NCBI GenBank assembly: GCA_047967505.1
Contig: CM106538.1
Length of the DNA stretch: 64,000 nt
Direction: 5' to 3' (one strand)
Origin: Dipteris shenzhenensis
Lineage: Eukaryota
Shown here: in pieces, positions 58,652-61,600 of the stretch
How positions within the stretch are numbered: position 1 is the stretch's first letter
How the letters are laid out: the number at the start of each line of letters is the position of its first letter
The notes under the pieces: generated by a model
Database searches by the model: none
Seen by the model: the letters and a program-made list of their open reading frames with translations, nothing else
Told to the model about the DNA's origin: nothing
Translations under genes and position numbers: made by a program

Positions 58652-61600
58652 TATAAGGAAGTCAACGTTAGGGTTGACCTACCGTGAGTGTTCGGAGTGT
58701 TTTATGGCAAAGGGAGGCGCCGTGGTGCCTAGCGGCTAGCCACTATTATATGGAGGATAGTACTCTCTCATGCGAGGTTGATTTGGATGAGGAAAACGTT
58801 AGCGGCCGTTTATGCTCCCTCTTGCTTGTATATACTTTTTGTTGCAATCAAGCGCATTCTAGCAACCGTTTGGCACTCCATCTAGTACCGTCTTGCAAGT
58901 AAGGTCATCATGCCATCTTGTGGGTTGTGAGCTTGTGGTGCACATTGAAGTGCATGCACGGGAAAGCAAAACGTGGGATGGGTTGAGGGCACGTGAAAGC
59001 GAGTGGGGAACGGTGAGGGCCATGTTTGTTCTCCATACACTGTATAAACCATGAACTGTTTGGGTACCGAGCCGGGACTCAAGGTGAGCCCGAAGGGGTC
59101 AAACGTGCCGACCCACATAACGGCCGTTAACCAGCAAGAAAACGTGAGCTGATCAGGACGTTGTGCAGTGGACGTTCCTTGGGGTCTTGGTGACCCGTGT
59201 GACTCTGTGGATTGAAGAACGTGAAGCCTAAGGGCTTGCCCAATGGGGCGTGGTGCAGTGGGATAACCGGCAGACGACCTGTGCCAAGGGTCGTGTTTGG
59301 CTAAGCTGCGCATAAAGGGGATTGTGGTATCAAAACCGAGACGTTAAGGGAGGTTGGGACTCAGCAACGGGTCCGACGTAAGGTGCTCACGACCGGAGAC
59401 TAAGTCCGAGACTACCGGGCCCTTACACTTGGTATCAGAGCAAACCTCAAGGTATCGCGAGCCTTCGAGGCGGATCCTGTATCGAGGTATTGCGTCAGAT
59501 GACGAGCAAAGTCAATCTTACACACAAGGGAAGCAGGCAATACTACGGGCGATGAGGAGTGGGAAGCCGTAGTGGACATGATGAGGGAAGTTCTAGAGTG
59601 GGTGAACGTCCTCCTGAGCAAGGATATGTGGTACTTGGAACAGCTAATGTCATGGTATGACACCGAGGGTGAGACGGCCAGGTGGCGCCGTGAGTTCATG
59701 ATGGTGTTCAAGTTGGTAATGGAACTCTACGTGAAGAAGGAGTTGGAAGATGATGCAGAGGAGTCCGGGAGCGAATCGGATGATGAAACGGCTCGGAGAG
59801 TGAAAGTGAAGATGAGGACTTGGAAGAAGAAGAAAGGCACAGGTGGAGTTAGGTATGGTGGGAGGCCCAAGCAGAAAAGAGAACCGTATCCAAAACGGTG
59901 GCCAAAGAAACAAAAGGGATGACTAGTGGAAGCAGGGAAGCGGAACCGTGTCGTGGGAGTGCGAGATGCATCCCGAGTAAGACGACCAGCAAACAGGTGA
60001 CTTGGGGTCCAACCGAGGCAATGGATGTCGCAGAGACGTGAGGCCCCAAGCGGGTAGCACGAAGTGTGCGAAGCCCTAAGTGAACGGTGCGGGAGGCGTG
60101 AGATGCATAGGAAACAGCACGGAAGGCGCGAGGTGTGGAGGCAGTGACCCGAGAGGCCTGTTGGTGAAGACATGTGATGTAAAACCCCAAGATGCTATAG
60201 GCATGGTGAAGACCCGAGGCACGAGAAGCACGATAACGGTGACTAGAGGCGTGAAAGGCATGGTGACAGAGGCGAGAGGCACGAGAGGTGCGGGAGGCAT
60301 GAAAGAAAAGAAGAGCAGTGCCGTTGTACCAAAGTCAAATCAAATAAATGCTCAAGGTGAGGAGGTTGGGATGAGGAGCACAGGAGGTGCAGGCCCAAGA
60401 CCAACTGACGTGGTAGGCCTGAAGGGAAGTCGAAAAAATGCTCAAGGCATGCAGGTGACCAAGGAAGACGTGGTAGGCGCGGGAGTGAAACGAGTAGGTG
60501 CACAAGGCACAAATGATGGAAAGGGAGAATAGGTGACAAGGTTAGGTGCACAAGGCACGTGTGATGGACAGGTGACGAAAAACGGCGAACATGTTTAAGA
60601 GAGAGGCATGGAAGGCGTAGTGGAGTGGCAAGTGGAGACTTGGGATAAAGAAGAGGAACAACACTGGGGCAAGGTCAAGAGTAATCAGAAGCCTGTGGCA
60701 ACGCAGATGCATGTGCAGAAAAGATGCCGAGGTAGAAAGGGAAAACGGCGAGGTGGAGGAGCATGGGGTGAAGAAAAGAGATGGAAAAGGAAAACGGTGG
60801 AGAACAGGTGCAGGTCTAGATAGATGCAGAGGCGTGACACGAAGTGAGGCCTTAGGGCAGAGGAGAAGGCGTGAGGAAGAAGAAGAAGAGAAGAAAGTGA
60901 TGACGGCCAAGGGGATGAAAGGACGTGTGATGAGGCCAAGGCGTGAAGAGGAAACGGTGAAAGGTGAAGGGGAAACTTCGGGAAAGAGAAGTGGTCAAGG
61001 CAAGGCAAGGTAGAACGGCGGGAAGGACGAGGAGATGGATGAAAAGGCCAAGGTTTCAAGGAGAAATGGCAGATGAAGAAGAGGCCAAGGTGAGACAAAG
61101 AGGTGGAAGGTGGATGCATAAGTGCAAGGTGAGATGTAGGCCAAGGGAGCAGGATGAGGTCAAGAAGGACCAAGATGAAGAGATGCAGAGGAGAACGGGT
61201 CTAGGTTGTGGAGCACAAAGAAGATGCAGGGCAAGAGGTCCAAGGTTGAGTGAGGTGCGGTGTTCAAGAGAAGGACGTGATGAGAAGAAGCCGCAGCGAG
61301 GTGGAAGGACGTGTGCAGAATAGGTGAGGATGAGAAGAAGAGGGTCAGGATGAGAAGTGGCGCGAAGGGTGAAGAAAACGGTGAAGCGCCCAAATCAAAC
61401 TCTCCAAAAACGTAAAATTCTCTCTTGGGTTATGCATAAATATTCAAAGTCTACATGGCAAGACGCATGGAAAGAATGGAAGCAGTGTGTTAACATCATG
61501 ATCCAACTGGAGGAGTCAAAGACGAGTCCAAGCATGGGCTCAGAATCTTTCCCTCCTTGTTACTTGGGCTTATTGCCTAAGCTAATGGGATGGCAGGTGC

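Follow-up and report, generated by a model that had tools for sequence, protein, structure and literature searches.

The ribosomal DNA locus and its inverted duplication

We analysed a 64,000-nucleotide stretch of the Dipteris shenzhenensis genome (GenBank assembly GCA_047967505.1, contig CM106538.1), hereafter the window, in which a ribosomal RNA gene (rDNA) spacer carries an array of a long terminal repeat (LTR) retrotransposon that we call A. The subject of this report is the U3 region of the A LTR, which is most likely a copy of the core promoter of RNA polymerase I (Pol I); the lineage to which A belongs may insert itself at the Pol I start. The ribosomal sequence itself lies on the minus strand (18232-23511) and comprises a small subunit (SSU) hit at 21712-23511 and a large subunit (LSU) hit at 18232-21616, separated by only 96 nt and without 5.8S or internal transcribed spacer; the 18S sequence lacks its universal 3′ end and shows C>T changes at its start. 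This rDNA unit is a decayed pseudogene. At the gathering score, Rfam recognised LSU and SSU only in the window, with no 5S or tRNA in the A LTR.

The spacer with the array is present twice, as an inverted duplication of 23.5-39.3 kb (23500-39330, the left arm) and 42.1-64 kb (42086-64000, the right arm), whose arms are 88-97% alike and flank a 2.8-kb centre. The duplicate includes the A array and a Ty3/gypsy element, Y, that is nested in it (present in the left arm as copy X), and does not include a second Ty3/gypsy element, G2; the order of events is thus A array, Y, inverted duplication and G2.

Anatomy of the A element

The A family is a true non-autonomous LTR retrotransposon of the LARD/TRIM type (large retrotransposon derivative/terminal-repeat retrotransposon in miniature). 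Its LTR is 776 nt long, or 871 nt where the U3 is doubled, and the LTR copies are 84-93% alike, starting with T(G/A)TAAGG and ending with CCCTTACA (TG..CA ends). Each LTR start directly follows the polypurine tract GAACGGGGGAGTG. The primer-binding site (PBS) motif TGGTATCAGAGC, which we take to pair with initiator tRNA-Met, gave 14 matches with two mismatches or fewer against 4.8 expected, and stands about 680 nt after each U3 unit; exact copies at 49063 and 59430 each lie 2 nt past CCCTTACA. Six LTR ends could be aligned through CCCTTACA, four of them continuing with CT, the PBS and internal sequence and the other two, which leave the array at 63276 and reverse complement 24272, with ACTATATTATGGGG (ACTATATTATGGGGAGTGG). 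The same TGGTATCAGAGC is named as a conserved PBS in the relevant passages of PMC7215508.

The U3 is 95 nt long and holds nothing besides a 26-nt terminus and a 69-nt segment, homologous to the rDNA spacer, that ends in ACTAT and is followed by TATATGG. In the right arm, the segment 58652-58753 (plus strand) contains the second 95-nt U3 unit of LTR2 (58652-58746, with ACTAT at 58742-58746) and TATATGG at 58747-58753, the presumed U3/R border. Identification of this segment as the U3 of an LTR element, as proposed in a preliminary description, is borne out by the PBS, the polypurine tract, the LTR ends and a target duplication described below. LTR2 as a whole (58557-59427, plus strand, 871 nt) runs from TGTAAGG to CCCTTACA with a doubled U3 (58557-58651 and 58652-58746), and is preceded by the polypurine tract at 58544-58556 and followed by the PBS at 59430-59441.

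The array comprises three to four LTRs with internal regions of 2.9 kb, giving a unit of about 3.7 kb; one such block of about 3.7 kb (58487-62420) is 93% like the reverse complement of 26221-30207. Apart from those of Y and G2, right-arm coordinates that follow are on the plus strand. The 5′ part of LTR1 (42340-42436) consists of U3 starting with TGTAAGG and is cut by Y after the ACTAT at 42432-42436, and the rest of LTR1 (R-U5, 48380-49060) resumes past Y, with the PBS next (49063-49074). Internal region 2 (59442-62299), in which no protein domain was found, extends from the PBS of LTR2 to a repeat of the polypurine tract at 62300-62312. In the left arm the PBS occurs at reverse complement 29250-29261 and 32990-33001 (minus strand), with one mismatch in each. 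The last LTR is rearranged, and in the right arm (62313-63276) it is a chimera: U3 and TATATGGAAGGTG occupy 62313-62419, sequence that is unrelated follows at 62420-62726, and 62727-63276 is the 3′ part of the LTR, ending in CCCTTACA. In the left arm the LTR 5′ and 3′ parts are separated by 1.1 kb of unrelated sequence, most of which is absent from the right arm: 1.12 kb present in the left arm at 25101-26220 (minus strand), between the start of LTR3 and the shared sequence, is missing at 62419/62420. A microhomology deletion in the right arm is likely because both edges carry AAGGTG-like bases.

A scan of 128 open reading frames of at least 90 amino acids found no Pfam domain in the A regions, the hits falling in the gypsy copies X and Y apart from one sub-threshold CobT hit. 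Open frames of 425 and 319 amino acids in the A internal region had no Pfam hit and look like read-throughs driven by low-complexity, purine-rich repeats. Among public sequencing runs one weak match was listed, and none from RNA. Comparison of 57201-64000 with the contigs of this run gave matches to parts of the A element at 85-99% identity, including a 371-nt contig that crosses the polypurine tract and U3 (62066-62415) with 19 other letters and 2 gaps (about 94%); no contig matched 62422-64000, in a run that was weak and is uninformative on expression or absence.

Promoter-like units upstream of an 18S gene every 3.7 kb or so, with tandem pairs of period 95, are also what plain long spacer repeats with duplicated spacer promoters would look like. 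We rejected this reading of the blocks as very improbable, given the PBS, the polypurine tract, the TG..CA ends and the 5-bp duplication. The first LTR is complete from its canonical first base and already contains the U3, and thus the U3 predates this insertion and is a trait of the family.

The native 69-mer and its place in the rDNA spacer

The counterpart of the U3 segment, which we term the native 69-mer, lies about 2.5 kb past the 26S 3′ end and directly after C-rich spacer repeats. The order in the right arm is 26S end (about 39848), 2.2 kb of 3′ spacer to 42085, C-rich repeats to 42270 and the 69-mer at 42271-42339 (plus strand). The context at 39788-42270 (plus strand) comprises the last 60 nt or so of 26S together with the 3′ spacer (39788-42085, like the reverse complement of 16706-18292), and the C-rich CATGCCCCCC repeats at 42086-42270 that adjoin the 69-mer. 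No 5S or other RNA family was found in the spacer at 39300-42450. In the inverted left arm the native 69-mer occupies 38921-38989 (minus strand), and the LTR starts at 38920 on that strand.

Past the A array the sequence reads ACTAT-ATTATGGGG, followed by 755 nt to the 18S gene (start 23511). Right at this site, in both arms, TATATTATGGG departs from the plant Pol I start consensus TATARTANGGG by one mismatch, at the R position; the window holds 11 matches to the consensus at one mismatch against 4.5 expected, and no exact match. In the right arm the ACTAT is at 63277-63281 and TATATTATGGG at 63279-63289 (together 63277-63289), and the native 5′ external spacer from 63282 to 64000 leaves the window, being 88% like the reverse complement of 23529-24266, which ends at the 18S gene. 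The left arm (23512-24271, minus strand) has ACTAT at 24271-24267, the start-like motif at 24269-24259 and the 755-nt spacer to the 18S start at 23511. According to passages of PMC7928365, which give the plant start consensus, a minimal Arabidopsis promoter from -55/-33 to +6 suffices; the motif is written TATATA(A/G)GGG or TATA(R)TA(N)GGG, and the latter form, used in the preliminary description, is cited in a passage of PMC3692318. Metagenome contigs were scanned for two exact 24-nt patterns, one from the start side and the other from the native 69-mer, and each scan returned 0 stretches.

From this arrangement, the 69-mer and TATATTATGGGG are probably the Pol I gene promoter and start of this rDNA lineage, in which case the U3 would be a diverged copy of the Pol I core promoter, covering about -69 to +10. 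The promoter-like placement of the 69-mer had been anticipated in the preliminary description and agrees with its position after the 26S 3′ end, 3′ spacer and C-rich subrepeats, and with the start-like motif and 755 nt to 18S past the insertion. A different part of that description has to be withdrawn: the rDNA start motif that it placed at 38920 is the 5′ end of an A-type LTR, since the ACTAT there precedes TGTAAGG, as it does at 42340. The continuation ACTAT-nnn-ATGG, said to be shared by U3 and rDNA in one register, does exist in the rDNA as ACTAT-ATT-ATGG (63277-63289 and reverse complement 24271-24259), but only past the far end of the array, and is absent at 38920 and 42340. The broader proposal of a captured Pol I promoter is partly supported: it retains a real LTR element, a real homology and a promoter-like place for the 69-mer, and loses the start motif at 38920, and its suggestion of transcription by Pol I in the nucleolus stands as a conjecture.

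Homology of the U3 and the native 69-mer

An exact recount of the ungapped alignment of 58678-58746 with the reverse complement of 38921-38989 gave 43 identical positions of 69, the figure previously counted by hand, and the same segment matches 42271-42339 at 40/69; the two native 69-mers match each other at 64/69. When the partner was shuffled 100,000 times, identities averaged 18.1 (sd 3.6) and never exceeded 35 (z = 6.9). When the native 69-mer was slid over 127,864 registers on both strands, seven A-type U3 copies scored 42-46 and the best unrelated position 33. The binomial tail for the match is 3.2e-10, or 4e-5 after multiplication by the 127,864 registers, and the match stands in register with the insertion point of the A array. 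A likeness by chance or base composition is ruled very unlikely by the z score, the separation of 42-46 from 33 and the corrected probability, and we give it practically no credence; in its favour, the native copy was missing from the hits of a short-word BLAST with E below 1e-3.

The segment is present in all eight A-type U3 copies of the window, as had been claimed, at 26234-26302, 29948-30016, 30043-30111 and 38826-38894 on the minus strand and at 42366-42434 (with an indel), 58583-58651, 58678-58746 and 62339-62407 on the plus strand. Identity between the native 69-mer and the last 69 nt of the 95-nt U3 is 58-70% without gaps, both sequences ending in ACTAT. The native copies carry the majority base of the seven gap-free A copies at 47/69 columns, and of the 24 mismatches, 16 are transitions. 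The 69-mer pairs 38826/38921 and 42271/42366 are spaced by exactly 95 nt, because the native ACTAT is followed directly by the first base of the LTR, and position 95 of the LTR is the last base of its own ACTAT.

The shared segment covers all of the unique sequence from the subrepeats to the start. Beyond ACTAT the likeness is weak for about 10 nt and reaches +33 in one LTR variant only; over the 30 positions after ACTAT, 11-19 agree, with one row off register and one in a chimeric copy. The best local match between LTR and native spacer is an 18-nt patch (17/18) with a score of 31 against a null of 21.3±2.1. In chained alignments, the left-arm spacer (23512-24271, minus strand) gave z scores of 2.4-4.0 with the R-U5 of three canonical A-type LTRs, each above all 100 shuffles, and the other five of the eight comparisons (the fourth in the left arm and all four in the right arm) gave z scores of 0.2-1.6. 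Local and chained alignments together revealed no robust likeness between R-U5 and the 755-nt spacer.

These comparisons bear on a rival account of the homology, in which the native 69-mer would itself be the U3 left by a related LTR of greater age, with the A array nested at its ACTAT, and the likeness would be one of LTR to LTR. In favour of this account are the weak colinear patches between left-arm spacer and R-U5 (z scores of 2.4-4.0), the nature of the locus, a pseudo-rDNA ridden with transposable elements, and nesting at the same pentamer, seen once, for Y in A. The right-arm alignments, with z scores of 0.2-1.6, and the mere 18 nt of the best local match tell against it. So does the absence before the native 69-mer of the 26 nt that open every A LTR, C-rich repeats adjoining it instead, and in the 755 nt before the 18S gene there is no LTR end, PBS or further duplication. 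The match to the plant start consensus is also closer at the native site than in the U3, and the native site has the normal place and distance of a promoter. We regard an older LTR at this site as rather improbable, and retain the native 69-mer as the presumed Pol I core promoter.

Two insertions at ACTAT

The A array is one insertion flanked by the 5-bp target duplication ACTAT (42335-42339 and 63277-63281), and the same pair is found in the inverted arm. The first LTR starts at 42340, immediately after ACTAT, and the last ends at 63276 (reverse complement 24272) with ACTAT next, placing the insertion point at the last five bases of the native 69-mer. A second element chose the same pentamer: Y (42437-48374, minus strand), a Ty3/gypsy element with decayed gag, protease, reverse transcriptase, RNase H and integrase frames between 374-nt LTRs (42437-42809 and 48001-48374, 93% alike), is nested in the first A LTR at the homologous ACTAT of the U3. 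Its duplication (42432-42436 and 48375-48379), which has A-type U3 on its left and A-type R on its right, is the same as that of the A array. Copy X in the left arm is altered, with 36053-37308 inverted relative to Y and one LTR cut to 187 nt.

Insertion of the A array in the native site and that of Y in an A-type U3 were separate events that hit homologous positions and share the duplication; in a window of 64 kb, the probability of this by chance is about 1e-4 in order of magnitude. In plants, nested LTR elements seldom land in LTRs (PMC6911290). The junction within the doubled U3, where ACTAT is followed by TATAAGG, looks like an A start joined to the ACTAT of a U3, and may conceivably have arisen by insertion. 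A and Y have similar ends (TGT/TAT-A-A/T-GG ... CT-ACA), but G2, which is unrelated, has such ends too, and BLAST detected no shared sequence among A, Y and G2. A partner link between A and Y would be compatible with these sequences. Preferential insertion of this lineage at the Pol I start is, on these two events, close to an even proposition, and we put it forward tentatively.

Transcription of the element and proposed mechanism

A second rival concerns the function, not the origin, of the U3. Although descended from the Pol I promoter, it would act as an ordinary small RNA polymerase II (Pol II) promoter, with CTATTATATGG as TATA box and a capped RNA beginning about 30 nt downstream. Nearly all LTR elements are transcribed by Pol II, according to PMC12786077, and the TATA-like core of plant Pol I promoters is described in PMC7928365, in the passages concerned, as usable by Pol II with an altered start; the U3 moreover fits the Pol I start consensus only with two mismatches. 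Against this stand the composition of the U3, which is a 26-nt terminus and a promoter homolog with nothing else, and the choice of the same pentamer in U3 and rDNA by a second element, as if one factor marked both. We consider use by Pol II less likely than not, with a substantial chance of being right.

As the single most likely mechanism, held with some reserve and well short of even confidence, we propose that the U3 recruits Pol I initiation factors and that a non-coding element RNA starts at TATATGG. Such an RNA, being non-coding, would need neither cap nor translation and would be copied in trans by a gypsy partner. The lineage would prefer the Pol I start through a factor bound there or by reading the DNA directly. 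One route by which the promoter copy might have been acquired, which is a guess, is template switching onto a read-through transcript of the spacer; promoter sequence would thereby come to lie after the polypurine tract and before the old start of the LTR.

Several observations weigh against a Pol I promoter in the U3 and a lineage that seeks the Pol I start. Identity between U3 and native 69-mer is only 58-70%, and the columns shared with the native sequence are no better conserved among the A copies than the rest (invariant 36/47 versus 14/22, P = 0.39). The U3/R border fits the start consensus with two mismatches in the sense direction and with one on the opposite strand. Pol II can read a Pol I promoter through its TATA-like part, as stated in passages of PMC7928365. 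The locus is a pseudogene, lacking 5.8S and showing C>T decay, and the target preference rests on two events, all A copies deriving from one array and its inverted duplicate.

Read opposite to the LTR, the A-type U3s give TATAATAGTGG, with one mismatch to the plant start consensus; these antisense start-like motifs lie at 26230-26240, 29944-29954, 30039-30049, 58645-58655, 58740-58750 and 62401-62411.

On balance we moderately favour, taken as a whole, the explanation built on a U3 derived from the Pol I promoter, with insertion at the Pol I start and use of the U3 by Pol I as its less certain parts. A more extended version would hold that in a non-seed land plant a Ty3/gypsy lineage integrates site-specifically where Pol I starts on rRNA genes, the Pol I initiation complex serving as its guide as the Pol III complex does for Ty3, and that the entire U3 of a non-autonomous derivative is the Pol I core promoter, from which Pol I transcribes the element. 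The U3 would then itself be a target, so that the family would home into its own copies and build promoter-studded arrays in rDNA spacers. All of this jointly we regard as doubtful.

Comparison with known systems

Cassandra and the TRIMp3 elements (Helenus, Ajax) are, like A, non-autonomous LTR elements whose LTR promoter was taken from a host RNA gene, according to passages of PMC10886601, and which thus have no need of a Pol II promoter. They share with A the PBS TGGTATCAGAGC and the occurrence of tandem LTR-internal-LTR arrays of about three LTRs (parts of PMC7215508 and PMC10886601), and Cassandra is reported to track changes of the host 5S promoter (PMC10853983, in the passage concerned). 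In contrast to A, these elements have internal RNA polymerase III (Pol III) promoters within 5S- or tRNA-like sequence and are shorter than about 1.3 kb, whereas the A U3 resembles an upstream Pol I core promoter without rRNA coding sequence and the A unit, at about 3.7 kb, is LARD-sized. A may therefore be said to resemble Cassandra and TRIMp3 in its apparent working but is not a member, because there is no 5S or tRNA in its LTR.

Ty3 of yeast integrates at Pol III starts, and is, like the proposed case of A and Y, an LTR element that inserts within a few bases of the start of a gene not transcribed by Pol II. The integrase of Ty1 binds AC40, a subunit common to Pol I and Pol III (PMC7459421, in part). 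Here, unlike in Ty3 and Ty1, the target would be a plant Pol I start, and the case consists of two insertions at one locus.

Spacer promoters are found in the rDNA of Arabidopsis and Xenopus, and like the A array they place several promoter copies upstream of the gene promoter. Promoter-like sequences have been described in spacer tandem repeats and in transposon remnants (PMC10319768, in the section concerned). The copies of the A array differ from spacer promoters in being LTR U3s accompanied by a PBS, a polypurine tract and a target duplication.

Retroelements that reside in rDNA units, as A does, include the non-LTR elements R1 and R2 in 28S and the tomato Ty3/gypsy element TRRT in 18S. 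Such elements are amplified with the rDNA units by unequal recombination, and R2 RNA is produced within the transcript that Pol I makes, as stated in PMC2679016 and PMC8789037, respectively. Unlike A, R1, R2 and TRRT lack a copy of the Pol I promoter and are located in coding regions, and the TRRT insertion was read as random.

Other elements in the window

G2 (50519-57233, minus strand) is a Ty3/gypsy element unrelated to Y, inserted in the A internal region in the right arm only, with one open gag-pol frame of 1904 amino acids, LTRs that are 95.9% alike and the duplication CCAAC on both sides. In a protein search with its pol, the best named relatives were from liverworts (45-48%), and further contigs matched at 61-65%.

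Directly past the 3′ spacer of the left rDNA unit, at 16673-16705 (minus strand), some 20 nt resembling an LTR end (..GTGACA) are followed by an exact TGGTATCAGAGC; this is a 5′-cut LTR element of another family. A satellite of 182 bp occupies 4552-11287 in 37 copies with 77% matches, and C-rich repeats of about 95-110 bp with GGCGGCCGCGGCCGCC cores lie at 928-2800 and differ from the CATGCCCCCC repeats that adjoin the promoter. An open frame of 1178 amino acids at 11386-14922 (plus strand) has a DUF7869 domain (E 1.8e-54) and probably encodes a transposon protein.

Implications

Among the literature listings and abstracts that were searched, none describes an LTR element that has a Pol I promoter or targets the rDNA promoter. 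LTR elements are taken as Pol II transcribed, with the Pol III-driven Cassandra group as the known exception, in the pertinent passages of PMC12786077 (a 2025 review) and of PMC10886601, which contains the TRIMp2/TRIMp3 scheme; the terms 'Pol I' and 'polymerase I' do not occur in the texts of these two papers. The apparent promoter copy comes from one decayed locus. If the native 69-mer were the relic of an old LTR, the finding would be reduced to a nested insertion with a sharp target preference, which would still be unusual because nesting rarely hits LTRs (PMC6911290).

If it is true that the U3 is a Pol I core promoter, it would add the third nuclear polymerase to the promoters of LTR elements, and A, if Pol I also transcribes it, would found a 'p1' type of LTR element next to those of Pol II and Pol III. 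Plant Pol I promoters are short, are reported to be species-specific and are hard to assay as their transcripts carry no cap (PMC7928365, in the passages concerned), and the element would offer a natural means of finding out which features make up such a promoter in plants. With repeated insertion at ACTAT, it would also be a Pol I counterpart of Ty3 targeting, and would represent one way in which spacer promoters and long spacer repeats may arise.

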